Below, piece after piece: positions 5,081 to 44,055 of a DNA stretch of 64,000 nucleotides. How positions within the stretch are numbered: position 1 is the first letter of the stretch; every line of letters begins with the position of its first letter. The DNA is from Acidobacteriota bacterium. GTDB taxonomy: Bacteria; Acidobacteriota; UBA6911. Location of the stretch: positions 2,656,001 to 2,720,000 of the forward strand of contig OY761556.1 of assembly GCA_963664705.1 (NCBI GenBank), in the 5' to 3' direction. A program made the translations under genes and the position numbers. The notes beneath the pieces were generated by a model that saw only the letters and a program-made list of their open reading frames with translations, searched no databases and was not told the DNA's origin.

Positions 5081-5190
5081 ATATCTGCCCCTTGTTTTGG
5101 CTTTGGGCCAATGAATGCCGATTACGTTACGCTCCGACCGGCTTCACTCTACTTTATCTCATCAGATTTCCAGAAAAAACAATTTTATAA

Positions 5191-5216
5191 ATGCATATTG
5201 CATGCATATAGCATAT
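5191..5216. promoter_or_regulatory. Candidate operator of the FCD-type GntR, between divergent operons
   Basis: ATGCATATTGCATGCATATAGCATAT has four GCAT units symmetric about TGCATGCA, in an AT-rich divergent intergenic region. Confidence 0.5.
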
Positions 5217-5300
5217 TATCTGCGTTGTACTTTACAATCGTATCAGGACGAAATGGGACCAAGCGCTCACAAAAGCGTCTGCGAGTACAGATATCGTCCT

Positions 5301-6464: not shown

Positions 6465-6470
6465 GAGACT

Positions 6471-16588: not shown

Positions 16589-18307
16589 ATGCGAAAATTT
16601 TGGACGGCGCTTTCCATTGGAATTCTCGCCGTCCTGGCAGCCCAGGATTTATCCCGGGCTCAAGGGACTGCGGATTCCAAACTCAAGGCGCCTGATGCTC
16701 AATTTGAGGTTCTCAGCCCCTGGGCGGATGTTGATCCCATCCCGCTCCGCGGGATTTCCCCGAGAATTCAGACGCTCGCGGGAAAGAAGGTCGGATTGTT
16801 CGTCAATCCGAAGCGGGCGGCCAAGCCGATTTCCGAATCAATCGATAAAAGACTGAAGGCCATGTATCCCGATATCCAGACAATCGTCTTCAATTCTACC
16901 GAGGCGAATGTCAATGAAATCGAGACAAAGAACAAGGACAAATTCACGGCATGGGCAAAAGGACTTGACGCTGCCATTGCCGTCGTCGGTGATTGAGGGT
17001 CCTGCACAAAGTACCTCGCCTATAACACAATAGCGATCGAGGACTTTGGCAAGCCAGTCGTGTTACTGGCCAATAAGGGTTTTGTTACCGATGCTCAATC
17101 AGCTGCATCCAGCAAAGGCATGCCCGGCATCAGGATTGTAGGGGAATCTGTTGCCTGTGAATCCACTGTCAAATCTGAGATAGAAGAAGGCATAGCGGCA
17201 GCCATGAAAGATGTCGTGGAAGCTTTGACCAAGCCGCTGACCGCTGAAGAAAAAACTCCGAAACCACAAACGGGTAAAACTCCAAGGGTAGCATTCAAAG
17301 GAAGCCTTCAAGATGTAAACCGGTTTTACTACAGCAAGGGGTGGACCGACGGCCTTCCGATCATTCCGCCTACCGCGGAAGCTGTCGCAGAAATGCTAAC
17401 CGGAACGGATCTACCACCTGATCATATCGTGGCAACGATCATTCCGAGAAAGGGAAAGGCCACGGTCGAAAAGATTGCGATTAATGCAGTCATGGCAGGT
17501 GCTCTTCCGACTTACATGCCCGTCTTGATTGCTGCGGTACAGTCATTCGCCGATCCAAAAACGAGATTTGATACGTTTGAGGTGAGTACCGGTTCGTGGG
17601 CACCCTTCATTGCCATCAATGGCCGAATCCGAAACGACATCAACATCAATTGCAGTTCAGGCGCATTGAGTCCGGGGAATATCGCAAACTCAGCGCTTGG
17701 CCGGGCCGTTGGTTTGATCGTAAAGAACATCGGCGGAGCAAGAAAGGCTGTCGAGGATATGGGGGTCATCGGCAATCCGGGCAAATACAGCCTCGTAATC
17801 GGTGAAGATGAGGAATCCAGCCCCTGGGAATCCCTCAGTGTCGAGCGCGGCTACAAGAAAGAGGACAATACTCTGACTGTGTTCTTCCCCAACACTTTCA
17901 TCCAGACCGTCCCAACCGGAACAAACGCGCAAGGGATTCTGGATACGCTGGCCGGGATGACCACCAGCACTATGTCCAGCATCATTCTTATTCCTTCATG
18001 GGCCAGGGTGTTATCGAGTGAAGGATGGACCAAACAGAAGGTCAAGGAATACCTGGCGGCTCACGGGACTTCTATCCGCTCGAGTGTCGCTGGTTTTGGC
18101 AGCGATACGACTCTTCCGAAAATCCAGACAGACAGCCTTATGCTGCTGGTTGCCGGCGGGCCGGGCTCGTTTATCGCGGTGCTGAGAAGTGCGGGACCCG
18201 GGTTTTTCGAAAATGCCCTGGTCACGAAGAAGATTGAGTTGCCGAAGAATTGGGACAAGCTGGTAGCAAAGTACAAAGACATCAAACCGCATTACGAGAA
18301 GTACTAG
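16589..18307 (+). CDS. UGSC-family selenoprotein (Sec at TGA 16994-16996) with signal peptide, fused to a GWTDGLPIIPPT domain; 572 aa
   Basis: ORFs 16538-16996 and 17060-18307 are in the same frame. Reading through the TGA gives AIAVVGD-U-GSCTKYLAYNTIAIEDFGKPVVLLANKGF with no other stop. RBS GGAGG before ATG 16589; no obvious RBS before 17060. Confidence 0.88.
17003..17051 (+). promoter_or_regulatory. Candidate SECIS hairpin downstream of the UGA
   Basis: Nested pairs TGC/GCA, CAAAGT/ACTTTG, CCTCG/CGAGG and CTAT/ATAG close the loop AACACA (17024-17029). Confidence 0.6.
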
Positions 18308-20376: not shown

Positions 20377-21027
20377 TCAGTCGATCTTTTCGTGCCCAAG
20401 CATCTGCATGTAGCCGGTCTGGTAATACCCATTGAAATATGGCGACAGGAGTAGCGGCATGAATAGCAGCGGCTTCCCTACTCGCTTGATGTCCATCGGA
20501 TTGTGCTCAAATCCTCTTGGTATATAAAGGATACAGGGCTTGGTGATAATGTGCCTTTCATATTCCGGTCCGAGGAATATTTCAATTTCCGCATCGAAGT
20601 TCGCCGTCAAATCCGGCAGTTGGGCACCGAGGAAGAAAAGGTATTCATCCACATCGTGGTGATGGGACTGCAGCTCCATCTTGTATGGCTTGACATAATA
20701 GCGAAACCCAAAATTAATACCGGCACCGGGAAGGTCGCTGTTACCCCGAAAACTGATTGTCGGACTCAGAATTGTGTCGGTCAGCGGTTTCTCTTTAATT
20801 CTGTGACAAAACAGGTGGTCGTATTTGCTGCCCTCAGTCCCTTTGGGCCAAGGGGGAAGGTTTTTGGGCATTCGCAAATTCTCCAAGGGCTCCTTCTTCT
20901 CCTGGGCCATTGCCCCGGCCGGAGCGCCGACCTGGGCCATTGCCAATGCTGCAAGGGCGGTGGTTGCTGTTACATCGCTGAAAAATGCTCTGCGCGTTTT
21001 ATCGTTATTGTTAGTCCCTGAACTCAT
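20377..21027 (-). CDS. Tat-exported cupin-like protein of unknown function
   Basis: Leader TRRAFF; cupin-type motifs SHHHDVDEYLFF and LYIPRGFEHNP; RBS AAGGAG before ATG 21027. Confidence 0.75.
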   Translation of the reverse strand: MSSGTNNNDKTRRAFFSDVTATTALAALAMAQVGAPAGAMAQEKKEPLENLRMPKNLPPWPKGTEGSKYDHLFCHRIKEKPLTDTILSPTISFRGNSDLPGAGINFGFRYYVKPYKMELQSHHHDVDEYLFFLGAQLPDLTANFDAEIEIFLGPEYERHIITKPCILYIPRGFEHNPMDIKRVGKPLLFMPLLLSPYFNGYYQTGYMQMLGHEKID

Positions 21028-21055
21028 TGAACTTCTCCTTAGCATGTCTTCGAGC

Positions 21056-21103
21056 CTTTGAGCCTTTGAGAAAGAGGAGGGTGCAAAACTCAAAGGCTCA
21101 AAG
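21056..21103. repeat. REP-like octamer-based inverted repeat, copy 1
   Basis: CTTTGAGCCTTTGAG-N18-CTCAAAGGCTCAAAG; perfect 15-bp arms. Confidence 0.75.
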
Positions 21104-25266: not shown

Positions 25267-26214
25267 ATGGAATTTCAAATCCAAAAGAACAGTCCTGTCC
25301 CTGTAATCAAACAGATCCAGGAACAGATAAAGCTATCAATGGCGATGGGAGTTCTAAAGAGAGGCGATATTCTGCCCTCGATTCGCGAAGTCGAGAAACA
25401 GACGGGCGTGAACCGAGGACAGATTCATCGAGCCTACCTTGCTCTGCTTAAATCCGGGCTGCTTTCTCCAGCACCGGGAAAGCGGATTGCCGTTGCTGTA
25501 TCTGCCGCAGCTTCTGAAACCATCAATAACAAATGCCAAGAGTTGGCCAACGACATCATCAAACGGACCCGGAATATCGGAGTATCTCCGATGGCATTTG
25601 CAAGATATCTTAGCCGCAGTGTTCAGGAAAATGAACGCACGTCGCCGTTTATTGCATACGTGGATATGGATAAAACAGCCGCGGTCCGAAGGGCTGAGCA
25701 GGTATCCAAACTATGGCATGCTTCCATCGTGGCAATGACACTCGATGAGTTTAAGTTCGCGATCGCGCACGGGAGCAAACTCCGAAAAGTGCTCGTAAAC
25801 CATCTCGGTCTCGACAGCACTCGACGCATGCTGCGCGGAAAGAGAATTGATCTTATTCCAATCGAGATTTCCTACAACGAGCAAACGATCCGCGCATTGG
25901 AAAAAATAAAAGGCCCTTCGGTTCTCGTTCTCCTTCCGGATCATGCGCTTCGAAGCGCCAACTTCATAGTGGAACAGTTGCGCCGCTGGATTAAGAGCAA
26001 AGAAGCAACCATTTCCTGGTTAGCCGTGACTGATGTGAAAGACTTTAAAGAACTAAAAAATGATGCGAAGTATGAACGTATTCTGGTATCGCCAGGAGCA
26101 CGCAGCAAAGTACCCGTAGAATTGCACCGAAATTCCCGTTTTCTTCTGTTGGAGATGGATTTGGATCCGGAAGATCTGGAGATCGCCAGGATACGCGCGG
26201 GCGTTATTGTGTAG
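25267..26214 (+). CDS. GntR family regulator with YtrA/PlmA-like wHTH and a long uncharacterised C-domain
   Basis: N-terminus MEFQIQKNSPVPVIKQIQEQIK...GDILPSIRE...VNRGQIHRAY; 315 aa; no recognisable FCD or UTRA motifs. Confidence 0.88.
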   Translation: MEFQIQKNSPVPVIKQIQEQIKLSMAMGVLKRGDILPSIREVEKQTGVNRGQIHRAYLALLKSGLLSPAPGKRIAVAVSAAASETINNKCQELANDIIKRTRNIGVSPMAFARYLSRSVQENERTSPFIAYVDMDKTAAVRRAEQVSKLWHASIVAMTLDEFKFAIAHGSKLRKVLVNHLGLDSTRRMLRGKRIDLIPIEISYNEQTIRALEKIKGPSVLVLLPDHALRSANFIVEQLRRWIKSKEATISWLAVTDVKDFKELKNDAKYERILVSPGARSKVPVELHRNSRFLLLEMDLDPEDLEIARIRAGVIV

Positions 26215-27412
26215 CCTTTTGGACTCTTATTGCTTTGATATCTGGCGTGGGACAACGCACCTCACAGGCTCCGCAACCATTGCATTTCAGTGAATTGACC
26301 ACTGGATAAGATTCATAGGCTTCCTTGTCCCAAGTGACTTTTATGGCATCAAACGGGCAGGCGTTCACACAAGCATTGCAGTCGGAGATACCAAATAGGC
26401 ACAAGGCCCTGTCCAATTGAGCAGTGCCAATGATGTACTTCTGTTTCTGTTCAAGGTTCAAAGGTTGTAGCGCTCCGCTGGGACACACCTTCGTACAGGC
26501 ATTGCATTCTTTAGCACAAAATTCTGTCTCGAATCGGACAACGGGTGACAGCAATCCCATAATTCCGGATTGTCTCGTGTCGGGATGGATAATCTTGGAT
26601 GGACACACGCGTACGCAATTGCCGCACCGCAGGCATTGCCCGGTAAAAAGGTGCTCCTTAATCGCGCCGGGCGGTCTCAATGGAGGCTTTGATCTTGCCT
26701 GACCACTTTTCTGCGCCAATAGGCTGAATCCCAGGCCCGCTGCAATAGAAATGAACTGCCTCCTTGCTCCGACGAATGCATTTGCAGGCCTATTTGCCTT
26801 TTGAGGTTCTGTTCCGTTTGGCTTCCTGAGATTCCTGCAAAAAGAGCCAACCTCATTCAGTAGATCCTGCGTTGCTCCCAAAGGACACACACGGGCGCAC
26901 CAGAGGTCGCCGGAAGTGAACGCCACCAATAATAGTATGACTATTCCGAACAGCGACAATAGGATCGAGAGGGCATGTTTCGAGGCAAAAGCAGAGAATC
27001 CGTTGCTAAACAATGCCAGCGGATCCATCCACAATAAAAGCGGATACCCGAAAATCGCGCCCGCAACTGTTATCAATGCGATGTAATTGCCGATTGAAGG
27101 GATGCCTTTCCACCAGATCTTAATCGGCAGTTTCTTGCTGGAAACACCATCGAGAAGCAAGCCGACCGGGCACACATAACGGCAGAACAGTCTCTTTTTA
27201 ATCAGTGCCATTGCTGCAAAAAGCAGGCCCACGACGGACTGCACCGGGAATGTCCGCCCTGCCAGGATTGAGCATATTGCGATAAACGAGCTTGTTTGAA
27301 CAAATACCCTGGAAACGCCAGCCCAGAAAGGAAACGGCATCAGCAAAAGCACTGAAATAAGAAAGCAGCCCCATCTTATGGACAGGCGCAGCGTGCGCCT
27401 CTTGTTCACCAT
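26204..27412 (-). CDS. Membrane polyferredoxin (NapH/MauN-like membrane domain fused to NapG/MauM-like 4Fe-4S domain)
   Basis: FCRYVCPVG and WCARVCPLG in the hydrophobic half; LRPPGA, CLRCGNCVRVCP, CNACVNACP and CNGCGACEVRCP. Alternative start at 27439. Confidence 0.9.
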   Translation of the reverse strand: MVNKRRTLRLSIRWGCFLISVLLLMPFPFWAGVSRVFVQTSSFIAICSILAGRTFPVQSVVGLLFAAMALIKKRLFCRYVCPVGLLLDGVSSKKLPIKIWWKGIPSIGNYIALITVAGAIFGYPLLLWMDPLALFSNGFSAFASKHALSILLSLFGIVILLLVAFTSGDLWCARVCPLGATQDLLNEVGSFCRNLRKPNGTEPQKANRPANAFVGARRQFISIAAGLGFSLLAQKSGQARSKPPLRPPGAIKEHLFTGQCLRCGNCVRVCPSKIIHPDTRQSGIMGLLSPVVRFETEFCAKECNACTKVCPSGALQPLNLEQKQKYIIGTAQLDRALCLFGISDCNACVNACPFDAIKVTWDKEAYESYPVVNSLKCNGCGACEVRCPTPDIKAIRVQKATQ

Positions 27413-27452
27413 CCCGCCATATCTCCTGCCTAATACCATTCATTCTTCGCTC

Positions 27453-32027: not shown

Positions 32028-33692
32028 CTATTCCAGATAAGCCCCCTTATCGGCGCTTGTTACGTATTTTGCGAAATGCGCGAGATACCCTCTGGTGATC
32101 TTCGGTTCTGGCCTTTTCCAGGATTTCAGCCTTTGCTGAATATCCTCATTGCTCAACTCAATGGTCAGCTTTCGCGAAGGAATATCTATTTCGATCACAT
32201 CGCCATCTTGCAGAATTGCAATGGGTCCTCCGTCCATTGCCTCAGGTACAATATGACCCACGCATGGTCCGCCTGAAGTCCCCGAGAATCTTCCATCGGT
32301 AATGATGGCAACGGATCTATCAAGCCCCATATCTACGAGGAGCCAGGTGGCCATTACCATTTCCCGCATGCCCGGCCCACCCTTCGGGCCTTCGTACCGG
32401 ATCACCATGACATCTCCCTCTTTGACTCTGCCGGAAAGGAGAGCCTCTATGCAATCCTCCTCCTGCTCAAAAACTCTCGCCGGCCCTCGATGGGTGTGCA
32501 TTTCAGGCCGCACCGCAGTCTGTTTAACGACGGCAGTTCCCAAGTTGCCCTTCAGGATGGCAATGCCGCCATTCCGGCCCTTCGGCCTCGAAAGCGGGCG
32601 TATTATTTCCTCATCCCTGATATCCGCCATCAACAGATTTTCGGCTACGGTTTTTCCGCTTGCGGTGATTGCCTCTGTATCAAGAAGAGTCGCCATGGAT
32701 TTCATCACCGCTTGCGTGCCACCTGCACGTTCGAAATCCTCCATCAGGTACCTGGAATCAGAGGGCTTGATCTCCATTATCGATGGTGTCTGCCGACTGA
32801 TCTCTTCAAAATTATCAAGGGTAAATGGATACTCGAGTTCGTGAGCGATTGCGGGAAAGTGAAGGGTGAGATTCGTCGAACCGCTAGTCGCGCAGCATAC
32901 CTTTACGGCATTGGTGAATGCCGCCCGACTCATGACATCGCGGGCTTTGATATTCTTTTCCAGCAACTCCATAACTTTGCGTCCGGCTTCTTCCGCGAGC
33001 TTTTCCAGCGCAGGATCAGTCGCGCACAGAGCGGAGTTGCCGGGCAGTGAAAGGCCCAATGCCTCCGCAGCGATGCACATACTGTTTGCCGTACCCATAA
33101 GGCAGCATGCTCCAGGCCCTGGACACACCGCACCTTCCACTTCACGCAGCTCTTCTCTTGAGATCTTGCCTTGCCGGTGCATGACGAAATACTTACCCAT
33201 GGAAGAACAGTCTAATCTCTCGCCCTTGTAACGGCCCGAAGGCATATACCCCCCGGTGAAAAGGACGGTAGGCAGGTTGCATCGCGCAGCTGCCATGATC
33301 AGACCTGGTACAATCTTGTCGCAAGTACCGATCATGACGGCCGCATCGTAACTTGCATGCTCGATCATCATTTCAACCGAAGCGGCAATCAGGTCGCGGC
33401 TTGGCAGGATATATTTGAAACCCGCGTTGCCACTCCCCTGCCCGTCGCAGGGCGCAAGCACGTTGAAGACAGTCGCCATGCCGCCGGCCTCCTGGATGCC
33501 CCGTTTTACCGCAGCTGCAATCCGGTCGAGATGATAGGATCCAGGCAGTATTTCATTCCATGTATTCGCAATCGCCACCAGAGGCTTTTCAAGGTCTGCG
33601 TCGGTTGCCCCCATCGACTTGAAGAAAACCCTTCGCATATAGTATTGAGGGACATCTGGACTTAATGCTTTGCTTCTCAGTTTTGCACTCAT
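32028..33692 (-). CDS. ilvD: IlvD/Edd family Fe-S dehydratase (dihydroxy-acid or sugar-acid dehydratase)
   Basis: Motifs PCDG, SRDLIA, GTCDKIVPG, GACCLMGTANSM, SGSTN, YEGPKGGPGMREM, TDGRFSG. The operon context suggests a catabolic paralogue. Confidence 0.9.
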   Translation of the reverse strand: MSAKLRSKALSPDVPQYYMRRVFFKSMGATDADLEKPLVAIANTWNEILPGSYHLDRIAAAVKRGIQEAGGMATVFNVLAPCDGQGSGNAGFKYILPSRDLIAASVEMMIEHASYDAAVMIGTCDKIVPGLIMAAARCNLPTVLFTGGYMPSGRYKGERLDCSSMGKYFVMHRQGKISREELREVEGAVCPGPGACCLMGTANSMCIAAEALGLSLPGNSALCATDPALEKLAEEAGRKVMELLEKNIKARDVMSRAAFTNAVKVCCATSGSTNLTLHFPAIAHELEYPFTLDNFEEISRQTPSIMEIKPSDSRYLMEDFERAGGTQAVMKSMATLLDTEAITASGKTVAENLLMADIRDEEIIRPLSRPKGRNGGIAILKGNLGTAVVKQTAVRPEMHTHRGPARVFEQEEDCIEALLSGRVKEGDVMVIRYEGPKGGPGMREMVMATWLLVDMGLDRSVAIITDGRFSGTSGGPCVGHIVPEAMDGGPIAILQDGDVIEIDIPSRKLTIELSNEDIQQRLKSWKRPEPKITRGYLAHFAKYVTSADKGAYLE

Positions 33693-33701
33693 GTTACCGT
33701 C

Positions 33702-34859
33702 TCAAATATTGGGATTCATTTTGAATATGCTGAAATCTCTCTGATTCAGCCGCTCGGCCCTGGTCTCTTTGCCTGATGCGCAGGCAATTATCTCCTCGAA
33801 AACCCGTTTCCCCGCCTGGGAAATGGTTTCGTTTCCCCGGAGAACCCTGCTTACATCGAGATCCATGTTGTCCCTCATGTTAACGAAGGTGCTGCGGTTT
33901 CCCGTAATCTTGACGACCGGGGCGATAGGAGATCCGCAAGGAGTGCCTCGACCTGTCGTAAAAGCCACAATTTGAGCACCTCCTGCCACCATGGCGGTCA
34001 GCTGCTCGATGTCGTGTGCTGGAGTATCCATGTAGACCAGACCTTTTCTTGCGGGGTTACAGGCATAAGCGATTACTTCCTGGATCTGACTGCTCCCGGC
34101 CTTGTAGATACAACCCAGGGATTTCTCTTCAAGCGTTGTAATGCCTCCGGCGATATTGCCCGGTGAGGGATTGCTCTCTCGTATATTCTGGCCCGACGCG
34201 ATCGCCCTTTGCTCCCACCAAGCAACCGCTTCCACCAGCTGTTTCCCAATTTCCGGCGTTCGAGCTCTTTTCACAAGAAGGTGCTCGGCTCCGATAATTT
34301 CCGGAGTTTCAGAGAGAATTACGGTTCCTCCTTCTGCGACAATCAGGTCACTCGCAATCCCCACAGCAGGATTTGATGACAATCCTGAAGTGTAATCGGA
34401 CCCACCGCACTCTGTACCCAGGATCAATTCGGTAAGCGGTATCGGCTCACGTTCCAATCGAGCGGCCTCATTCAGCATTTCCTTTAGTATCTTTCTGCCT
34501 ACGGCTGTGGTTTTCTTCGTTCCCCTCGTTTCCTGGACTTTTATTACTTCCACCCTTTTGCCGCTGGGCGCAATTGCGTTTGCGATTTCCTCCGGTTGCA
34601 GTTCCTCACATCCATTCCCAACAACGAGAACGGAAAAGACGTTAGGACTCATTCCAAATCCGATAAGCGTCCTTCTCACCAGCGCTTTATCTTCTCCCAT
34701 CTGCCCGCAGCCCAGGGTATTGGGAAGATGAACCGCACCCTTTAATCCTCGCGCTATATCTCGTGCGCAACTCTGCGAGCAGCCAACGCTGGGAATGACC
34801 AGTACAAGGTTCCGCGTTCCCGCTCTCCCATCAGATCGACAGTAGCCATGGAAATTCAT
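33702..34859 (-). CDS. UxaA/GarD/SuyB family dehydratase or lyase, large subunit
   Basis: Motifs FHGYCRSDGRAGTRN, GNGCE, ECGGSD, SETPE, NPSPGNIAGG, EEKSLG, FTTGRG. Confidence 0.92.
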   Translation of the reverse strand: MNFHGYCRSDGRAGTRNLVLVIPSVGCSQSCARDIARGLKGAVHLPNTLGCGQMGEDKALVRRTLIGFGMSPNVFSVLVVGNGCEELQPEEIANAIAPSGKRVEVIKVQETRGTKKTTAVGRKILKEMLNEAARLEREPIPLTELILGTECGGSDYTSGLSSNPAVGIASDLIVAEGGTVILSETPEIIGAEHLLVKRARTPEIGKQLVEAVAWWEQRAIASGQNIRESNPSPGNIAGGITTLEEKSLGCIYKAGSSQIQEVIAYACNPARKGLVYMDTPAHDIEQLTAMVAGGAQIVAFTTGRGTPCGSPIAPVVKITGNRSTFVNMRDNMDLDVSRVLRGNETISQAGKRVFEEIIACASGKETRAERLNQRDFSIFKMNPNI

Positions 34860-35149
34860 GAGGGCTCTCCCTTGGACTGGCTCACCACATTGTGCACATG
34901 GACGTGCTCGCCACGCCGAATCGTTTTCGTGCTCCGGCCTATCATCTCTCCGTATTTAATCACGGCTTCACCCTGGTCAATATGCCTTATCGCGAATTTG
35001 TGGCCGCTGGGGATGTGAGAAATCAACGTTATCTTCTCGATATGTTGTTCTGGCCTAATTGAAACAGTTGTGCCCGCGGGAAGTTCCACCAATGTCACTG
35101 CGACGTTGTCCTGTTCGTTGATAACGATTATTCCCGTACTTGAACGCAT
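34856..35149 (-). CDS. UxaA/SuyA family small subunit (SAF domain)
   Basis: Motifs DNVAV, IPSGHKFA, IKYGEMIG, GEHVHVHN; 4-nt overlap with the large subunit. Confidence 0.9.
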   Translation of the reverse strand: MRSSTGIIVINEQDNVAVTLVELPAGTTVSIRPEQHIEKITLISHIPSGHKFAIRHIDQGEAVIKYGEMIGRSTKTIRRGEHVHVHNVVSQSKGEPS

Positions 35150-35381
35150 GACCCCTCTCAATAAATATGTTGAGCACGGTCAGTATTTTGGGCCATCCAA
35201 GACAACCATACAAACCGCTCGGGCTATGGACGAAAATACCAGACACATAAGTCCTCCCACATAGCCGCCTCCGTTAACCGATTCTGAAGATGATAATCCA
35301 GAAAGTTAAGACCGCAAGAGTTCTGTTCCACCAATGGAAATTATGGGTTTCTCCCGGACGTTACGCTGATAGAATGAATTA

Positions 35382-35399
35382 TGTCACATCTTTATGACA
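35382..35399. promoter_or_regulatory. Operator site 7
   Basis: TGTCACAtcttTATGACA in a divergent intergenic region. Confidence 0.8.
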
Positions 35400-35545
35400 C
35401 AGATCGTGTTAGAGTCGTGATAACAGAAGCATCCTGGACGTAATCGGCTGAAAACATGAGCGACCTGGCGACACCGGCGTTTTTTCCGTCCACGGTCAAC
35501 GCTGTCCCCAAAAAGCATGCTGGCGGCGAAGAGAGGCAATTCCAC

Positions 35546-37162
35546 ATGAAACGAGCTCTTTTATTCACAATGTGCGCAGTTCTTGTATCCGGCTTCTGCC
35601 TGGCACAGGCGCCAGCCCCTGTCACGATTGAGAGTGGATTGGTGCAAGGGACGGTTGAAGACAGCCTGACGGTTTACAGAGGCATCCCGTTTGCTGCGCC
35701 ACCAGTTGCCAACCTTCGATGGCGCGCTCCTCAGCCTGTGGCAAAATGGGATGGCGTGAAGGAAACCACGAAGTTTGCTCCTGCCTGCATACAGGGCATG
35801 ATGATGGGACCCAGCGGCAACGGCCCTGCGCCAAGCGAGGATTGCCTATATTTGAACATATGGAGTCCTGCAAAATCGGCGCGCGATCGCATCCCAGTAT
35901 TCGTATGGATCTATGGCGGTGGGTTTGCCATGGGATCCACTTCGGAAGCCACCTATAGCGGGGAGATGCTCGCCAAAAAGGGAGTGATGCTCGTAAGCAT
36001 CGCCTACCGCGTAGGACAAATGGGATTCTTCGTGCATCCGGAGCTGAGCGCCGAGACCCGAAACCGCGTATCGGGCAACTACGGCCTGCTGGATATGATT
36101 GCCGGCCTCCAGTGGATTCAAAAAAATATTGCTGCATTCGGCGGCGACCCACATCGCGTGACAATCTTCGGAGAGTCGGCCGGAGGAATCGCCGTCAGCA
36201 TGTTGTGTGCTTCGCCTTTGGCCAAAGGCCTGTTCCACGGCGCAATCTCGGAGAGCGGCGGATCGTTCGGACCACCAAGGCCCGCAACCATGCCCGGAGA
36301 GAACATGAAACGGCTGTCCGACGCGGAGCGATCGGGGACAGAAACGCTTAAATCGGCTGGCGTGGCATCCATTGCAGAGGCGAGGAAACTCCCTCCGGAC
36401 AAGCTTTCAGGCAACGGAGGCCGTGGTCCAAGCGGTTCGGCGGCTCGTGGCGGTGGCGGTCCGGCGGGTTTGACCAATTGGCCGATCGTCGACGGCTGGG
36501 CGATTCCGGATGATCAATACAAGCTATATGAATCGATGCGATATAACGATGTGCCAGTTCTAGTCGGCTACAATTCCGACGAGGGCTTGAGCTTCTCTCC
36601 TCCGCGGACGCCTGAAGAATATGTTGCCAATGTGAAGTCCCGATTCGGTCCGTTCGCCGACAAACTCATCGCGGCCTACCCTCCAGGAACAGGAACAGTA
36701 GCCAAGACTGCGCGCGACCTCATGCGCGATGCAGCATTTGGGTGGCAAACTTGGATTTGGGCGCGATTGCAATCAAAAACGGGCAAATCCAAGGTTTTCT
36801 ATTATTACTTTGATCAGCACCCGGAATATCCGGCCGACTCACCGCAGGCAGGTCGCGGATCGCCGCACGGACAGGAAGTGGCGTATGTATTTCGACATTT
36901 GAATCCGAGTCAGAAACCCACCAAATCGGATGAGACGATATCAGAGGCTATGGCTACCTACTGGACAAACTTCGCCAAATCCGGAAACCCCAATGGCACA
37001 GGCCTCCCGGAATGGCCGGCCTTCAGCGATTCCAATCCCACGCTAATGTACTTTGCTCAGACTCCTCATACAGGGCCGGTTCCAAGTGCGGATGCACTCA
37101 AAGTCATGGATCAATATTTCGCGTGGCGAAGGACTCCTGAGGGTGAAGCCTTTGTGAAATGA
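35546..37162 (+). CDS. Exported type-B carboxylesterase
   Basis: Signal peptide from ATG 35546; motifs SEDCLYLNIW, GESAGG, NSDEG, SPHGQE. Confidence 0.95.
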   Translation: MKRALLFTMCAVLVSGFCLAQAPAPVTIESGLVQGTVEDSLTVYRGIPFAAPPVANLRWRAPQPVAKWDGVKETTKFAPACIQGMMMGPSGNGPAPSEDCLYLNIWSPAKSARDRIPVFVWIYGGGFAMGSTSEATYSGEMLAKKGVMLVSIAYRVGQMGFFVHPELSAETRNRVSGNYGLLDMIAGLQWIQKNIAAFGGDPHRVTIFGESAGGIAVSMLCASPLAKGLFHGAISESGGSFGPPRPATMPGENMKRLSDAERSGTETLKSAGVASIAEARKLPPDKLSGNGGRGPSGSAARGGGGPAGLTNWPIVDGWAIPDDQYKLYESMRYNDVPVLVGYNSDEGLSFSPPRTPEEYVANVKSRFGPFADKLIAAYPPGTGTVAKTARDLMRDAAFGWQTWIWARLQSKTGKSKVFYYYFDQHPEYPADSPQAGRGSPHGQEVAYVFRHLNPSQKPTKSDETISEAMATYWTNFAKSGNPNGTGLPEWPAFSDSNPTLMYFAQTPHTGPVPSADALKVMDQYFAWRRTPEGEAFVK

Positions 37163-37231
37163 GTTGTGCAGCGGCGGTACGACTTTTGAGATTTGATTCG
37201 CTCAACAATTGTGGGAATAGGGGAAATTTGT

Positions 37232-39682
37232 ATGAAAACCCAGGTAAACGAAGATTGGCTCAGGGAAATTGACAATCTGGAATTGAGTGATCGAATCCGA
37301 CAATGGCAAAAGGCCATGAAAGCTTGCCCGAGCCAAATTTATGTCGATAGACAAAGACTCGCATTGGAGTCCTGGGTGGAAACAGAGGGCGAGGACATAG
37401 AAATCCGAAGGGCAAAACTATTCAAGAAGATCGTCGAAAATGTCCCAATAAAAATACACGATTTCGATGTTCTGGTAGGACGGCTTACACCGGGGGTTAT
37501 TGGCGCAAGCACAGCAATCGATATTGTGGGGGACTATATTCCTGCTATTTGGAATGATGACGGGAAAATTCGCATTTCAGTAACAAATGATGGGACTTTG
37601 TCTAAGGCGGATTTGGAAATACTGCGAGAGAGCGCCAGCTACTTCCGCGGAAAAACTGCGCCCGATTTGGCGTACAAAGCATTGCGCTCCCTGGTTGGCA
37701 CGTGGGCCGAAGATTACGAGAGTGCAAAGGGCAAGGACCCGGTCTTAAGTTCAGGGATTTTTCCCGGAACAAGCGCAACGGTGATGTGGAAGAAGATTTT
37801 GACAAAGGGTCTGAGAAGCATCATTGATGAGGCTAAGGAACACATAAAAAACTTTGCGGAAAAGCAGCAACACGGCATAGACAAGGTCATATTCTGGCAG
37901 GCAGCCGAGATCGTTTTGGAGGCTGCAATCAACCACGCCCACCGATATGCCACACTTGCGGAAAATATGGCCGAAAATGAGGAAAACACAATTCGGCGCG
38001 ATGAACTAAAAGAGATCGCCAGGATTTGCCGGTGGGTTCCGGAGTACCCGGCACGCACATTCCAAGAGGCGCTTCAATCGCTGGCTATTGTCGGCGTGTG
38101 CAAAAACTTTGAACACCCAATGCACTGTCACCCTCACCTTGCCAGGGCCGACGAATATCTATGGCCATATTTTGAACAGGATGTTAAGGGAGGAAAGCTG
38201 ACTCTGGGAAAGGCCGCAGAGCTGCTCGAAGAGATCATCGGTCGTTGGGGAAGCCAGATTTTTGTTGCGACTTCAAGCTTCCAGCAGACACATCAGATCA
38301 ATTATGGAATTCATAATGTAGTAGTGGGTGGCGTAGATGCGAACGGGAATGAGATATCAAACGAGTTGAGCTATCTCATTCTTCACATTATAGGATTATT
38401 AAGAATGTCTTCGCCGACCGTTAGCCTTCGCTGTAATAAAAACACGCCCGGCTGGCTCCTGGAAAAGGGATTAGAGACCAACACCAAGACAAGGGGCGGC
38501 ATTCCCCTCTTTCAGAATGAAGACCACGTGATCGACAGCTTCGTCCGTGACGGGGTACCGGTAGAGGAAGCCAGGGAGTGGTTCGGTCTCGGATGCGTGC
38601 AGCCTGTCGTCCCATCCAAAGTAAAGCACTCAGGATGCGAGGGCGCCGGAACAGTAAACGTTGCGCTTGTATTGGATTTGGCCCTCCATAACGGAGTGTG
38701 TGCCCTCACGGGCAAAAAGCTGGGCATCGAGACCGGCAACCCGCGCGATTTTAGGACCTTTACTGCCCTATACGATGCGTTTAAGCAGCAGTTTTCATTT
38801 ATTGCAACGAGAACGCTTTGGTTGGCTCGCACAGTCCGCGAGATAAATGAAAAACATCTGCGGCTTCCTTTCATGTCCAGCCTGATAACACAAGGCTGTA
38901 TGGACGCAGGAAAGGACGCTCTATGTCCGGACCCGTCTTTCCACATTTTCGTCATGCAAGATCGGGCAATTGTGGATACAGCAGATTCTCTCATGGCTAT
39001 TAAGAAACTTGTATTTGATGAAAAGAAATTGACTATGGATGAGCTGATGGGAGCGATTGACTCAAATTTCGAAGGCGTAAGCGGCGAACAAATTAGACGC
39101 ATGTGCTTGGCTGCTCCAAAATTCGGGAATGATATTGACGAAGTGGATCACATGGTACGAGACCTGGGCAAATTCACCTCCGGTGTGATTCGCTCGTATG
39201 ACAATCATCCATACAGCAACTATGGCGTCGTGCGGGAAGGTTTGTCGTGGCATTATTTCGGCGGATTGGGAGTAGGCGCCCTTCCCAATGGCCGCAAGGC
39301 AAAGGAACCGCTGAACGACGGCTCCATATCACCCATGCGCGGAGCGGATGTAAACGGTCCCACTGCCGTAATTCGGTCTGCAATAAAGGCAGGATTCGAC
39401 GAAGCACAGGCATCCGTTCTCAACCAGAAGTTTTCACCCTCCGCCGTTCAAAGTCCTGAGAGCAGGAAAAAAGTGGCGGCGTATACAGGTACATTTTTTC
39501 AGAACGGCGGTCAGCACATCCAGTTCAATATAGTGGACACTAAAGAATTGCTCGATGCGAAGACAAACCCCGAGAAATACAAGGATCTGATTGTCCGGGT
39601 GGGAGGCTTTAGCGCTTACTTTGTTCAACTCTCCCCAGAGATTCAGGATGACATCATCCTTCGCACCGAGCACTCGCTTTAA
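37232..39682 (+). CDS. Glycyl radical enzyme (PFL2-like), function unknown
   Basis: Motifs IRRAK, PARTFQEALQ, Cys loop FGLGCVQP, APKFGND, ALPNGRKA, HIQFNIV, Gly loop LIVRVGGFSAYF. Confidence 0.93.
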   Translation: MKTQVNEDWLREIDNLELSDRIRQWQKAMKACPSQIYVDRQRLALESWVETEGEDIEIRRAKLFKKIVENVPIKIHDFDVLVGRLTPGVIGASTAIDIVGDYIPAIWNDDGKIRISVTNDGTLSKADLEILRESASYFRGKTAPDLAYKALRSLVGTWAEDYESAKGKDPVLSSGIFPGTSATVMWKKILTKGLRSIIDEAKEHIKNFAEKQQHGIDKVIFWQAAEIVLEAAINHAHRYATLAENMAENEENTIRRDELKEIARICRWVPEYPARTFQEALQSLAIVGVCKNFEHPMHCHPHLARADEYLWPYFEQDVKGGKLTLGKAAELLEEIIGRWGSQIFVATSSFQQTHQINYGIHNVVVGGVDANGNEISNELSYLILHIIGLLRMSSPTVSLRCNKNTPGWLLEKGLETNTKTRGGIPLFQNEDHVIDSFVRDGVPVEEAREWFGLGCVQPVVPSKVKHSGCEGAGTVNVALVLDLALHNGVCALTGKKLGIETGNPRDFRTFTALYDAFKQQFSFIATRTLWLARTVREINEKHLRLPFMSSLITQGCMDAGKDALCPDPSFHIFVMQDRAIVDTADSLMAIKKLVFDEKKLTMDELMGAIDSNFEGVSGEQIRRMCLAAPKFGNDIDEVDHMVRDLGKFTSGVIRSYDNHPYSNYGVVREGLSWHYFGGLGVGALPNGRKAKEPLNDGSISPMRGADVNGPTAVIRSAIKAGFDEAQASVLNQKFSPSAVQSPESRKKVAAYTGTFFQNGGQHIQFNIVDTKELLDAKTNPEKYKDLIVRVGGFSAYFVQLSPEIQDDIILRTEHSL

Positions 39683-39923
39683 TAACAACCCCCCGGCCCT
39701 TCAGTCCTGGGATATCCGCTGTTCACTTGTTCCTCTGACCAGTGAGAGGCATGCTTTGAGCAGAAAAATGACCAAACCTAATCCCCATGGTATTGAATCT
39801 GTGATTCGAAGCAACTCTAAAGCCGGACACAAAGTCTTGCCTTCCGGCGGCAATGAAACGATCTTGACCAAGGTCGGATTTTTGCCTCCTTTAAGTCCAC
39901 AGCCTATGCGCAAACGAAAAGAC

Positions 39924-41372
39924 ATGGTTCAGGAGAAGGTATTCGGTTTCGAGATACCGCCAGAACCAATTCCTTCTCGTGACATTAAGAAAAATATCTA
40001 TGCTGAGGTAGTAGTGGTAGGCGGTGGGATAGCAGGGTTGAGTGCTGCCATTTCTGCAGCAGAGGCAGGAGCCAATACCGTCTTATTGGAGAAGACGGCA
40101 ACCATTCAAGCTCGCGGCCACGATAACGCTTTTATCGGTAGCCGGCTTCAGGAAAAGCTGGGAATAAAAATCGATAGAGACGAAGTCATACTAAATTTAG
40201 TGAAATATGGAGCCAATAAGCCTGACCAAAGACTAATCAGATTGTGGGCCGAAGGAAGCGGTAAAACTGCCGACTGGCTCATGGATATGACGGACGCCGC
40301 GGGTCTCGAGGTAATTATTAACCACTATCCCCCGCCTCCAGCTTTCACTCATGACAGGGAATACTATCCTCAATATTCAGTTACGCACCATTACCACAAT
40401 GAACGTCCAGTAGCCAGATGTTTACTGGATAATGCCCTCAAGAAAGGCGTTACTGCATATTTTAAAACCCGCGCAAAGCAGCTTCTGCGAAAGAAGAACG
40501 GCCGGGTCACCGGCGTTGTTGCCCAAAATGCGGATGGTGAATATCAGCAGTTCAATGCTTCCAAAGCCGTTATACTCTGCACCGGAGATTACAGCAACAA
40601 CGCTGAGATGATGGCTAAATACTGTCCGCAATCATCATACCTCGAATCCATGATACCCACTTCCAATGGAGACGGGCATATGATGGCGATGTGGGTTGGT
40701 GCAGTCATGGAACCCGGGCCGCATATACCGATGATCCACGGCCCCGCCGGTCCACTTCTCAGTTCGGCCTTCCTTCAAGTAAATCTCAAGGGAGAACGCT
40801 TTCAGAATGAAGATGTCCCAATTCAAAGTAATGTAAATGCCGTCGAGCGACAACCTGGCAGGATAGCCTGGCAGGTATTTGATTCGAAGTATCCGGAGGA
40901 ACTTCCATATCTTGGGATAGGCCTGGGGAAAATTATTATTGCAACTAAAACAATCCGGCAAAAAGTGGATAAAGCAGCAATAAAGGCCAACTCGATCGAA
41001 GAACTGGCAACGAAGATGAAAATACCGGTTGAAGCCTTTGTGGCCACCATCAGGAGATACAACGAACTGGCACGACTGGGAAGAGATCTGGACTTTGGCA
41101 AGCGGCCGGATCGCTTGTTTGCTATTGATAATCCCCCATATTGTGCGGGTAAAAGTGGTTACGAATTACTGGCTGTTTTGGGAGGCCTTAATATCAATTG
41201 GAAATTGCAGCCTCTGGATAAGGATTGGGAAATCATTCCAGGAATCTATCTTGCAGGAAATACAATGGGCAATCGCTTTGCCGTAGATTACCCAACGATG
41301 TGCCCCGGGCTTAGCCATGGAATGGCAATACACTTTGGCCGGGTTGCCGGGTTAAATGCTGCCTCGCAATAA
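39924..41372 (+). CDS. Flavoprotein of the fumarate reductase / flavocytochrome c (FAD_binding_2) superfamily
   Basis: Motifs VVVVGGGIAG, GRVTGVVA, AVILCTGDY, NGDGH, VNLKGERFQNE, IPGIYLAGN, GRVAG. Start at 39906 or 39924. Confidence 0.88.
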   Translation: MVQEKVFGFEIPPEPIPSRDIKKNIYAEVVVVGGGIAGLSAAISAAEAGANTVLLEKTATIQARGHDNAFIGSRLQEKLGIKIDRDEVILNLVKYGANKPDQRLIRLWAEGSGKTADWLMDMTDAAGLEVIINHYPPPPAFTHDREYYPQYSVTHHYHNERPVARCLLDNALKKGVTAYFKTRAKQLLRKKNGRVTGVVAQNADGEYQQFNASKAVILCTGDYSNNAEMMAKYCPQSSYLESMIPTSNGDGHMMAMWVGAVMEPGPHIPMIHGPAGPLLSSAFLQVNLKGERFQNEDVPIQSNVNAVERQPGRIAWQVFDSKYPEELPYLGIGLGKIIIATKTIRQKVDKAAIKANSIEELATKMKIPVEAFVATIRRYNELARLGRDLDFGKRPDRLFAIDNPPYCAGKSGYELLAVLGGLNINWKLQPLDKDWEIIPGIYLAGNTMGNRFAVDYPTMCPGLSHGMAIHFGRVAGLNAASQ

Positions 41373-41568
41373 TGACCTAGCAGCGATATGGCAAAGGCCA
41401 TCAGCTACATTTACGGCCGCCGGATGGACGACAACTCCGATGATTGCAGTCCACAGAGTCATCGCCAATTTGATTCGCTGAGTTCACGACGCCATTGGGC
41501 TTTCTTCCGCGCTAATATGCGTTGGCAGCCCGCATCTGCAATATTTGAAATCGGACAAATCAGACCTT

Positions 41569-43005
41569 TTAGAGAGATATGCCGATTCTGATTGGTTGTA
41601 TTTTTGTCAAATCAGAATACCCGGACTTGATCTGCAGACTCTCTGTAATAGAAAGGTATCGGTCGTCAGTCTCTTCCCAGGCCGGCCACTCGATAAGTCC
41701 CTTTACGCTTGGGTTTCCTGTTCTGGCAAATTGAGTCCATATGCGCATCATGGATTCTGAAACAGTTCTGTCAATATCCGAAATGGTTGGCACCGGGGAT
41801 TTGGCGCCGGAAAGCGCAAAACCCCCATAGTGAGCCTCCCAGGCTTCAGTAACGTCCAGGGATCCGAACATATAATGCAATTCCATCCCGTGGGCTGCAA
41901 CACAACCTTCGCTTCTCCAGTTATCCGGCACACGGTCAAAAACTGCAGCATATCCTCTCGAGTCGTCTTTGCTCGGAGCTTTTAGCATGGCTATATAGTC
42001 TGCAACCATCTTGTCCGCGATGACCAACCCCGGCCCCGTCAGTTCCCCCATGTCAGATACAACAAGATAAGGCACTTCATTGCGTTGACCGGTCCGGAAC
42101 ATATTGATGATTGAGTCCGGCAGGAACCATCCATCTTGAGCCACGCTCCAGGGCCCCATGAATTCATACTCTGCGCCCAAATCCTCATTCAAAGACTGTT
42201 CCACTTCGACAATTTTTTCCCAGGAAACAGCACGGGCTGCTGCAAGCGGATCCACTGCGCTGTCGACACCGAGTTTGGAGAAAAATCTCTCACCGAACGC
42301 TTCCAGCCTTTTCAGTTGCGTTGGTTCAAAGTCCTTCCCCCCGCTCTGGATGATGGCTCGATGAAACATTCCCTTTGCCAGAGGGGAGGCGACTAAGGCA
42401 GCTACCTTGAGCCCGCCTCCCGATTGACCAATGATCGTCACGCTATCCGGGTCGCCACCAAAAGCGGCGATATTTTTTCTGACCCATTGAAGGGAATCAA
42501 TCAAATCCAGAAAGAGATAATTACCGGATACTCCTTGGGGGGATTCACGAGATATTAGTTCGTGTGCGAACAAACCGAATATGCCGAGCCGGCTATTAAC
42601 AGTAACCAGCACAACATCGTGGCAGGGCAAACCGAGGCTGTTACTGATGGGAAGATTCCCATTTCCATATCGAGTACCGCCGCCATGAAACCAAACCATA
42701 ACCGGCAATTTTTCGCCCGCCTCTCTGGCGGGCGTCATCACATGGAGGTATAGACAATCTTCGCTCGAAGACAATGATTGCAATTTCCCCGAAGCATGAA
42801 CATCCGGATATTGGGCAGCCTGGTTGCTGTATTCTGTGCATCGGCGGATACCAGACCATGGGGCCGGCGGTTGCGCCGGCTTCCAGCGCAAAATTCCGAC
42901 AGGCGGAGCAGCATAGGGTATGCCCCTAAATATGGAGAGCTCCCGCTCCCCTTGTCTTACCTTCATGCCGGAAATGGAGCCGGTATTCAGCGTGACGCGA
43001 TCCAT
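41569..43005 (-). CDS. Type-B carboxylesterase without signal peptide
   Basis: Motifs FRGIPYAAPP, SEDCLYL, GQSGGG, AAHGME, WTQFARTGNP; RBS GAGGAGGAGG. Confidence 0.92.
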   Translation of the reverse strand: MDRVTLNTGSISGMKVRQGERELSIFRGIPYAAPPVGILRWKPAQPPAPWSGIRRCTEYSNQAAQYPDVHASGKLQSLSSSEDCLYLHVMTPAREAGEKLPVMVWFHGGGTRYGNGNLPISNSLGLPCHDVVLVTVNSRLGIFGLFAHELISRESPQGVSGNYLFLDLIDSLQWVRKNIAAFGGDPDSVTIIGQSGGGLKVAALVASPLAKGMFHRAIIQSGGKDFEPTQLKRLEAFGERFFSKLGVDSAVDPLAAARAVSWEKIVEVEQSLNEDLGAEYEFMGPWSVAQDGWFLPDSIINMFRTGQRNEVPYLVVSDMGELTGPGLVIADKMVADYIAMLKAPSKDDSRGYAAVFDRVPDNWRSEGCVAAHGMELHYMFGSLDVTEAWEAHYGGFALSGAKSPVPTISDIDRTVSESMMRIWTQFARTGNPSVKGLIEWPAWEETDDRYLSITESLQIKSGYSDLTKIQPIRIGISL

Positions 43006-43209
43006 CGCCTCCTCCTCTTTTTCCTATGCGCGCTGGTCTCCAACGAAATTCCTGATTCACACGCATAATGGGGTAGAGCCATTTCTTTGTTGCTATCGGG
43101 GTTTTGACGAGCGTACCAGGCCTTATTCCCGTGGCGTACTCCGATGCTCCTATGTGTCCTCCTGCGGAGTTTGCCCTACCCCCAGGAGTCTTTTTCGATT
43201 TCCAGACTG

Positions 43210-44055
43210 TCACTGTTTCGAAGCCGGAATTTTGGGACACCCGTTTGGACAAAGCGTAATGACGTGTACAAAGCGCAGCTTCCCATTTTCCAGTCGGAAA
43301 GTGTGTGCGTCGGGCAATCCTTTCTCGCCACCGAAGTCGATCTGTCCCATGACAGCTCCCAGGTCGACGTCCACTATGTAGCGTCGATTATTCATTGGCA
43401 CGCCCCCACCTTTGGGAACTCCTTCGGTGCAGGCTGGGTTTGGGTGGTTATCGGCGTTGGTGTAGTACCCGCCCTCAATACGGCTGCAAGGAATGCCCCA
43501 GGGCAATTTATTGAAGGCTGAATAATCCTGGAAAATGTCGAAATAATCGTCCGCGACCTTGATCAGTGCCTTACGATCCATGCGCTTATCGGACGGAATA
43601 ATTTCCCACTTCTCTGTGGACGAGTATTTCAGATAACTCTTTGCATCGAACAGCCAGTCTCGCTTATCGCTTGCAAGGCTTTCAATCTCGGCAATCCTGC
43701 CATCGGAGATTTTCAACCGGGTTCCGATGACCCATGGGTGATCGCTATTCGACTGAATGATCTCAGTGTAAGATTCGCAGATATCCACATCGTAAATGCT
43801 GCGACTGAAATCGATTGGGAAAGGCTTTTTCCAGAGGCCCTGTCCCAACGGAATTACCTTTCTTCTTTCGATATATTTTGCCTGAGTGACGAGAGGCATC
43901 AGAGATGGATCCCCTTTTTTCAAGGCACTTAGATATTTGTTGGTCACTTCCTGAAGTCCTGTTCGCGTGCATCCTTTGCCTGCTGAAGTCAGGACGGGCT
44001 CCGCCGAGGCAGGAATAGCAAAACAAAGCAGCAAAAACGAAATGATTATCCGCAT
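43210..44055 (-). CDS. Exported hypothetical protein (possibly NTF2-like fold)
   Basis: Signal peptide, RBS AAGGAG, co-oriented in the operon. The fold is a guess from the pattern GTRLKISDGRIAEIE / HTFRLENGKL. Confidence 0.7.
   Translation of the reverse strand: MRIIISFLLLCFAIPASAEPVLTSAGKGCTRTGLQEVTNKYLSALKKGDPSLMPLVTQAKYIERRKVIPLGQGLWKKPFPIDFSRSIYDVDICESYTEIIQSNSDHPWVIGTRLKISDGRIAEIESLASDKRDWLFDAKSYLKYSSTEKWEIIPSDKRMDRKALIKVADDYFDIFQDYSAFNKLPWGIPCSRIEGGYYTNADNHPNPACTEGVPKGGGVPMNNRRYIVDVDLGAVMGQIDFGGEKGLPDAHTFRLENGKLRFVHVITLCPNGCPKIPASKQ

Follow-up and report, generated by a model that had tools for sequence, protein, structure and literature searches.

Which reaction can be expected of a glycyl radical enzyme (GRE), an oxygen-sensitive kind of enzyme, that lacks the Cys-loop glutamate of the CxE motif and has no activase gene beside it? 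This question is raised by a gene on the forward strand, at positions 37232-39682 of a 64,000-nucleotide stretch of DNA from an Acidobacteriota bacterium (C1:2656001-2720000 of genome G000); the whole stretch is referred to as the window. In this study, we found that the gene is real and intact and encodes an uncharacterised GRE of 816 amino acids (aa), with no internal stops. The Gln in its Cys loop and its orphan state, with which a preliminary description of the window had begun, are less special than first thought. The lead is instead the clade to which the enzyme is assigned, together with a glutamate on strand 8.

An intact enzyme of an uncharacterised clade

The preliminary description, made from the sequence alone, had reported a Cys loop GLGCVQP and a Gly loop RVGGFS. 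Both were read directly in the intact 816-aa open reading frame (ORF), in the contexts WFGLGCVQP and RVGGFSA, and the protein scored above the Pfam cut-offs for PF02901 (437 bits) and PF01228 (99 bits). The predicted fold was confirmed as that of a GRE, at the level of the fold only, by a structure model based on a 27-sequence alignment (pTM 0.86; Foldseek TM 0.82-0.87 to GREs). One public contig, possibly the source of the same DNA, was identical over 33500-43500 with 0 differences, so the gene layout is not an assembly artefact. Run X5 covered the 64-kb stretch in scattered short pieces only, and a promoter and terminator scan gave counts inside the shuffled range (3 vs 6.7 +/- 3.0 and 11 vs 8.2 +/- 2.3). 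Relaxed selection was assessed by pairwise dN/dS with the Nei-Gojobori method. The values for the window GRE were 0.068 against its homologue at locus L031 and 0.067 against that at L030, and those of four GCVY pairs were 0.044-0.079. A dN/dS of about 0.07, within the GCVY range, indicates purifying selection.

From 7998 candidates, a homologue search returned 607 proteins at E <= 1e-50. Residue counts given below are from the best 120 of the 607, which include a paralogue from the same genome. All 120 read R[VI]GGFS, so the RVGGF loop named in the preliminary description is present but not peculiar to this gene. The best four homologues were 83-90% identical to the window GRE and all read GCVQ, and ranks 5-120 were 57-69% identical. 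The residue at position 457 of the Cys loop was Tyr in 107 homologues, Gln in 4, Thr in 4, and Asn, Ser, Met, Arg and Trp in one each; Glu was found in none of the 120.

A FastTree phylogeny of 120 rows, rooted at the midpoint, was built from the window GRE, 19 of the 120 proteins, 85 named or metagenome-locus GREs, 8 of 27 genus loci and the 7 other G000 GREs, and held no characterised GRE. The 7 Gln-type rows formed one branch (support 1.0) nested within a core clade (0.997). Sisters of the core clade read CSQ, CSY and CIN, and the wider clade (support 1.0) had no Cys-loop Glu. The core-clade records were titled Acidobacteriota, Dehalococcoidia, Desulfobacteraceae, Spirochaetes, Coriobacteriaceae and gut Oscillospiraceae, and the genus proteins grouped with those titled Acidobacteriota. 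These results indicate that the window GRE belongs to a large, uncharacterised clade in which Gln marks a small nested subclade, and that Gln457 is, on this tree, a state derived within a clade that mostly reads GCVY.

The Gln type was found in four database clusters of 38, 4, 7 and 1 members (about 50), and the catalytic motifs were complete in all listed members long enough to show them. No further Gln-type copy was found in a phylum sample of 401 genomes with two candidates scored per genome. A single-protein scan of genome contigs found no relative, whereas an alignment-based scan did. The clade was absent from the literature searched, with subscription papers, including the AAD paper, outside the search scope. 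Papers cited here by PMC number are cited for the sections covered: in those of a 2026 review, no such GRE class was named, and whole GRE clades were described as lacking validation (PMC13450708).

The enzyme had been described earlier as a GRE of possibly new chemistry, and it is indeed unlike the characterised ones. Fold-search identities to solved GREs were 21-30%, and all 12 NCBIfam matches were below cut-off, among them TIGR01774 (488/678 bits), HpsG (462/1000), HypD (429/1100), CutC (382/1050), HpfG (358/1000) and the PflD type (356/1109). The best sequence and fold matches were the 1,2-eliminases, namely the glycerol and 1,2-propanediol dehydratases, CutC, IseG/IslA and HypD (1r8w, 5i2g, 9rco, 5ymr, 6vxc), led by CutC (387 bits) and glycerol dehydratase (383 bits) in a PDB sequence search. 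These share the length and barrel of the window GRE (TM 0.84-0.87), but their identity to it is 26-30% and it lacks their CxE, having Gln457. The decarboxylases HPAD, IAD and AAD share the GRE fold and may likewise employ an acid as proton donor to the Cys thiolate or the substrate. The window GRE, however, fell below the equivalog cut-offs for HPAD (279/1150 bits) and IAD (383/1100), and AAD (7e7l) reached 309 bits, less than several eliminases, whereas clade members exceeded 1090. Pyruvate formate-lyase, which performs C-C chemistry on a carboxylate substrate, has a Cys-Cys pair, whereas the window GRE has a single Cys and scored 83/994 bits against TIGR01255; the database label 'formate C-acetyltransferase' is unsupported. 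HPAD and IAD carry CxE, unlike the window GRE (PMC7079210). The benzylsuccinate and methylalkylsuccinate synthases resemble it in having a non-Glu Cys loop, with Ser in BssA (PMC7079210), but differ in identity (24-26%) and in their small subunits, genes for which are not adjacent to the window gene (gaps of 69 and 85 bp).

The strand-8 glutamate and the comparison with PhdB

The clade carries the motif REGLxWH at residues 668-674, with Glu669 in 119 of the best 120 homologues and Arg668, Trp673 and His674 in all of them. In the tree alignment, Glu669 was kept in 82 of 84 core rows; the sister clades had Asn or Gln at this position, and the 21 outgroup GREs mostly Tyr, Ile or Phe. The Asp577-Arg578 pair was also kept in the sister clades and was absent from the 21 outgroup GREs.

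In ungapped alignments, Glu669 fell on IslA Val680 (IseG Val678) and on the Tyr found in PflD and propanediol dehydratase; the eliminases have Tyr, Val, Leu or Ile at this site, which is also that of PhdB Tyr691. The register was checked with Leu671, which fell on IslA Phe682 and HypD Thr645, two residues reported to be equivalent (PMC8473560). IslA Val680 lies about 3 A from the catalytic Cys468, although strand shifts make predictions of such positions difficult (PMC8473560). As Glu669 aligns with a residue beside the Cys, the acid is predicted to lie beside Cys455, and we consider this placement quite probable from the alignment.

This bears on the earlier description of the enzyme as a non-eliminase. 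That CxE is absent stood, but the label was weakened because the clade Glu, on strand 8 at a site next to the Cys, could take the place of the CxE Glu. The Gln subtype also differed from the Tyr type at residues 361 (His vs Asn), 574 (Val vs Gly) and 576 (Gln vs Ser), which suggests that another substrate may be used on the same core. We infer that residue 457 and these co-varying pocket positions tune substrate choice.

A link to the phenylacetate decarboxylase PhdB had been drawn from a Gln at Cys+2. PhdB does carry CXQ (PMC7079210), and PhdB, like the window GRE, is a single-chain PFL-like enzyme. The comparison was made through residue contexts from the paper text and its primers (PMC7079210). 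PhdB requires Gln484, Trp495 and Tyr691, and Tyr691 was proposed to be the proton donor near Cys482 (PMC7079210). In the primer contexts, Trp495 lies on strand 6, five positions ahead of the conserved Asn that follows the Cys loop; on strand 8, Tyr691 precedes the conserved His by five positions. These positions correspond to Gly471, which was Gly in all of the best 120 homologues, and to Glu669 in the window GRE. His300 matches PhdB His327 by spacing in the Gln subtype, and is Asn in 86 of the 120. The PhdB loop continues with Ser and that of the window GRE with Pro, and the window gene has no adjacent activase. No PhdB entry was among the PDB or NCBIfam matches of the window GRE. The tree, in which Gln arose in another clade, and the PhdB residues that were not kept together suggest that the shared Gln is convergent and that the window GRE is not PhdB-like by descent; the link through Gln was not supported. 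A PhdB-like pattern, defined by the spacing from Cys loop to Trp, was found in 3 of 137 class genomes and rejected, as two matches had in-frame stops and the third was unlike the PhdB loop.

Paralogue and candidate activases

The preliminary description had stated that no radical-SAM activase with a CxxxCxxC motif occurs in the window. No GRE activase was found in C1:2656001-2720000, and the 12 genome matches to PF13353 were all elsewhere. The motif itself, however, occurred twice in window ORFs of at least 80 aa, once in a 4Fe-4S protein (26204-27439) and once in a frame of 91 aa, neither of which has the activase motif.

G000 encodes 8 PFL-like GREs and 4 GRE activases, the latter at C1:4685502, C1:2612910, C1:1832224 and C1:1559922. 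One GRE, at C1:4683002-4685446, reads GCVY, is 57% identical to the window GRE and has the Gly loop RIGGFS. An activase gene at C1:4685502-4686416 lies directly upstream of it, the two together spanning C1:4683002-4686416, 2 Mb from the window gene. Exactly one GRE match was found in 27 of 29 same-genus genomes and two in G000, and none of 31 other genomes had a match at 1e-150. All 27 genus matches were GCVY, with an activase within the 1.5-kb flanks at 22 of the 27 loci. Thus, judged by these sequences, the window GRE is an accessory paralogue of a genus-wide GCVY GRE.

In an activase tree, the activases of clade GREs formed their own branch that mirrored the GRE tree, and C1:4685502 fell inside it. 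The glycyl domain of the window GRE was 67% identical to that of the paralogue and 36-52% to those of the six other G000 GREs, and the two Gly loops differ by a single V/I exchange. In reported cases of cross-activation, the Gly loops are conserved (PMC13450708, section 2.5). At locus L033, two clade GREs that are 64% alike flank a single activase. Among 51 named core-clade loci, 32 had an activase within 1.5 kb, 12 had full flanks and none, and 7 were too short. Five genomes with orphan clade GREs were also compared, and three of them had an activase of 56-64% identity elsewhere (typed by identity only). These results suggest that the paralogue's activase probably activates the window GRE in trans, and the earlier proposal of an activator elsewhere in the genome is thereby plausible.

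The activase at the Gln-type metagenome locus L031 (one of two such loci), whose GRE is 88% identical to the window GRE, was 83% identical to the G000 activase C1:2612910, 79 kb left of the window gene. This activase directly precedes an Asp-type GRE in both L031 and G000. It was judged less likely to be the cognate one, as it lies outside the clade activases and groups with those beside Asp-type GREs, and we keep it as a second candidate activator.

Several other GREs were observed. Two further uncharacterised G000 GREs have Asp at Cys+2 (GCVD, C1:2613934-2616324; GCID, C1:1562528-1564990) and formed their own branch, and the G000 GRE at C1:6260435 reads GCQE. A GCVY GRE at locus L028 (G017:C13) was split over two frames. 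In a record titled Bathyarchaeia (L105:1-1854), the Gly-loop Gly is replaced by Ala (RVAAY) in a GRE-like protein with an adjoining activase, which resembles in this the aminoacyl radical enzymes of PMC13450708.

Neighbouring genes, proposed reaction and rival readings

As listed in Table 1, the GRE gene lies between an esterase gene and a flavoprotein gene, the arrangement that had been described earlier: a PF00135 protein with a signal-peptide-like N-terminus precedes it by 69 bp and an FAD_binding_2 flavoprotein follows it by 85 bp. The closest solved structure to the esterase was the fumonisin B1 esterase 8s6d (285 bits). The flavoprotein matched PDB 1d4c and 6t85 at 116-124 bits, and its best NCBIfam match was vinyl phenol reductase, below cut-off (175/600 bits). 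L031 keeps the esterase-GRE-flavoprotein order, with the flavoprotein reduced to an 86-aa 5' stub. A relative of the window flavoprotein, split over two overlapping frames, was seen at C1:2638878-2640631 (-).

Table 1. Coordinates in the window of the GRE gene, its sequence features and the two flanking genes
Feature	Position	Strand	Basis
Type-B carboxylesterase, signal-peptide-like N-terminus, likely co-transcribed	35546..37162	+	PF00135, 377 bits
Ribosome-binding-site-like AGGGG, 8 nt 5' of ATG	37219..37223	+	direct sequence reading
Glycyl radical enzyme, Gln subtype of uncharacterised non-CxE clade	37232..39682	+	ORF, Pfam, homologues, tree, fold
His354-Gln355, clade-invariant	38291..38296	+	120/120 best homologues
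Cys loop GCVQP; Cys455, predicted thiyl radical site	38591..38605	+	Cys in 120/120 best homologues
Asp577-Arg578, strand-7 end, candidate anion-binding or structural pair	38960..38965	+	120/120 best homologues
Strand-8 motif REGLSWH with Glu669	39233..39253	+	conservation and ungapped alignments to 8yjo, 9rco, 8id0, 5ymr, 6vxc
Gly loop RVGGFS; Gly792, predicted radical store	39596..39613	+	direct reading; Gly in 120/120 best homologues
Flavocytochrome-c / fumarate-reductase-type flavoprotein, likely ene-reductase	39768..41372	+	PF00890 (FAD_binding_2)

The neighbours of other clade GREs were surveyed at 31 loci, from which 97 of 122 picked neighbours were sent to Pfam. Ester hydrolases were near the GRE at 5 of the 31 loci (L037, L038, L055, L056, L081) and flavin oxidoreductases at 6 (L049, L054, L056, L088, L094, L078), both being raw counts without a background rate; SDR and flavin reductases were recurrent neighbours. 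It had been proposed that the substrate is an acid released by the esterases. The esterase at one of two Gln-type loci and at 5 of the 31 clade loci gives this weak to moderate support. The window, which holds 6 of the 16 genome carboxylesterase matches at E <= 1e-30, is so rich in esterases that the adjacency here means little by itself.

Other genes of the window were also observed. An ester-hydrolase island at 742-61365 comprises six type-B carboxylesterases, four 'putative esterases', two CocE-type hydrolases, one BD-FAE-like protein and one beta-lactamase-fold protein. Within it, a family-III CoA-transferase (PF02515) and two 2-hydroxyacyl-CoA dehydratase D-type subunits (PF06050 twice) at 3812-7751 make up a second radical-type system. 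An IlvD/Edd-family dehydratase and a two-gene UxaA/GarD-type dehydratase (SAF and large subunit) at 32028-35161 (-) are divergent from the esterase-GRE unit. A small protein family without a Pfam match at 1e-6 recurred at 16 of 69 loci; it was seen next to the paralogue and, in the window, at 20377-21093. An unannotated family of about 430 aa was found in the window (17060-18307, no Pfam match at 1e-6), at C1:2634034-2635419 and C1:2644649-2645914 in G000, and near clade or sister GREs at L041, L044, L052, L066, L073 and L106. CSY sister-clade GREs and some core members (L068, L070, L074, L039, L048) were seen among recurrent genes, some of which carry methyltransferase-system domains (MttB in L039, RACo in L048).

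Our overall reading is that the window gene encodes an intact accessory GRE, probably activated in trans, that would use a Cys455 thiyl radical and the relocated Glu669 and most likely decarboxylates an organic acid released by the neighbouring esterases. We give this a probability of roughly 40%. The esterase would free the acid from its ester, and the flavoprotein would reduce or oxidise a C=C bond of the freed acid. The activase of the GCVY paralogue would install the radical in trans, and the GRE, with a thiyl radical on Cys455, would abstract a hydrogen atom from the acid; CO2 would be released, with Glu669 as the putative proton donor. We suggest tentatively that the enzyme cleaves a C-C bond of a carboxylic acid. 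This reaction is favoured because the CxE-less GREs PhdB, BssA and PflB do C-C chemistry on acids, because the described eliminases and isomerases keep CxE, and because the neighbours point to esters and enoates. The residue at Cys+2 is Gln in PhdB and Ser in PflB and BssA (PMC7079210), and PhdB and BssA act on carboxylate substrates (PMC13450708). In other families, radical decarboxylation is initiated at the position beta to the carboxylate (PMC9248008), which motivates a narrower and rather improbable proposal. Here the clade would be a new GRE class, in which the acid moved from the Cys loop to strand 8, that decarboxylates 3-arylpropionates by way of a benzylic radical, giving ethylphenols or ethylbenzene. 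The Cys+2 residue (Tyr, Trp, Thr or Gln) would set ring specificity, the 3-arylpropionates would come from ester-released, flavin-reduced hydroxycinnamates, and one activase would serve several paralogues encoded across a genome.

Several observations weigh against the decarboxylation reading. The solved GREs that come closest in sequence and fold are eliminases (26-30%) and not decarboxylases (HPAD 21%), and the strand-1 region 176-186 has no Arg comparable to IAD Arg226, whose position was inferred. The structure model was poor at residues 670-699 (pLDDT < 50), so that the placement of Glu669 is alignment-based. The neighbours of clade loci vary widely, and L030 has another gene in place of the upstream esterase. 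As to activation, the Gln-type GRE of L031 is followed 1 kb on by an activase of a non-clade branch, and in two of the five orphan-GRE genomes, metagenome-assembled genomes of about 2 Mb, the best activase reached 41-45% (typed by identity only). The window GRE also has Cys401 where all of the best 120 homologues have Trp, a possible sign of recent decay that would be invisible to pairwise dN/dS.

The main rival reading is that of a 1,2-eliminase or a ring-opening isomerase. Glu669 would then act as the base in place of the CxE Glu on the alcohol half of the ester (a polyol, cyclitol or sugar) and the carbonyl or enone product would then be reduced by the neighbouring reductases. The closest solved relatives (glycerol and propanediol dehydratases, CutC, IseG, HypD), the near-invariance of Glu669 at a site beside the Cys, the recurrent SDR and flavin reductases, and the sugar-acid dehydratases and sugar-type ABC transporter in the window are consistent with it. 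We nevertheless regard it as unlikely, as the structurally characterised eliminases and isomerases carry CxE (PMC13450708) and the position of glycerol dehydratase His164, whose role is described in the same review, aligns to Ser/Thr or a gap. In addition, the sister clades, with Asn or Gln at 669, also lack a Glu in the Cys loop, so the wider lineage manages without either acid. Another C-C route, enoate addition as in benzylsuccinate synthase or a formate-lyase-like reaction, is less probable still. Non-Glu loops such as those with Ser at Cys+2 in BssA and PflB go with C-C chemistry, the invariant Arg578 and Arg668 could bind a dicarboxylate, and Gly471 opens the strand-6 pocket position. 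However, the low identity to the two synthases, the flanking gaps, which are too small for small-subunit genes, the lack of a second Cys and the PFL model score all argue against this route.

We consider it highly improbable that the gene is a non-functional copy, orphaned not long ago and never activated. This reading would account for the missing activase in cis, the absence of the copy from every other one of the 29 genus genomes, the Trp401-to-Cys change and the truncated flavoprotein in L031, but the full-length frame, its dN/dS and the roughly 50 Gln-type database members with kept catalytic motifs speak against decay. A true PhdB-type, toluene-forming phenylacetate decarboxylase is, if anything, the most improbable of these. 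It would share the CVQ loop and His300, which like PhdB His327 lies five residues before a conserved Arg, and the host genus groups with records titled Acidobacteriota; against it stand the derived origin of Gln inside the GCVY clade, Gly471 and Glu669 at the essential Trp495 and Tyr691 positions, and the Asn that most homologues have in place of His300.

The clade spans the variously titled records named above and is present in 27 of the 29 genus genomes, and its members often carry the wrong label pyruvate formate-lyase. Should Glu669 take over the role of the CxE Glu, the common rule that an enzyme without CxE is not an eliminase would have to be revised. The genome is a good test bed, since it holds a GCVY enzyme, its activase and a GCVQ variant, three genes that allow both the sharing of an activase and the contribution of Cys+2 to be probed. 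The reaction of the clade would be a new anaerobic radical step.

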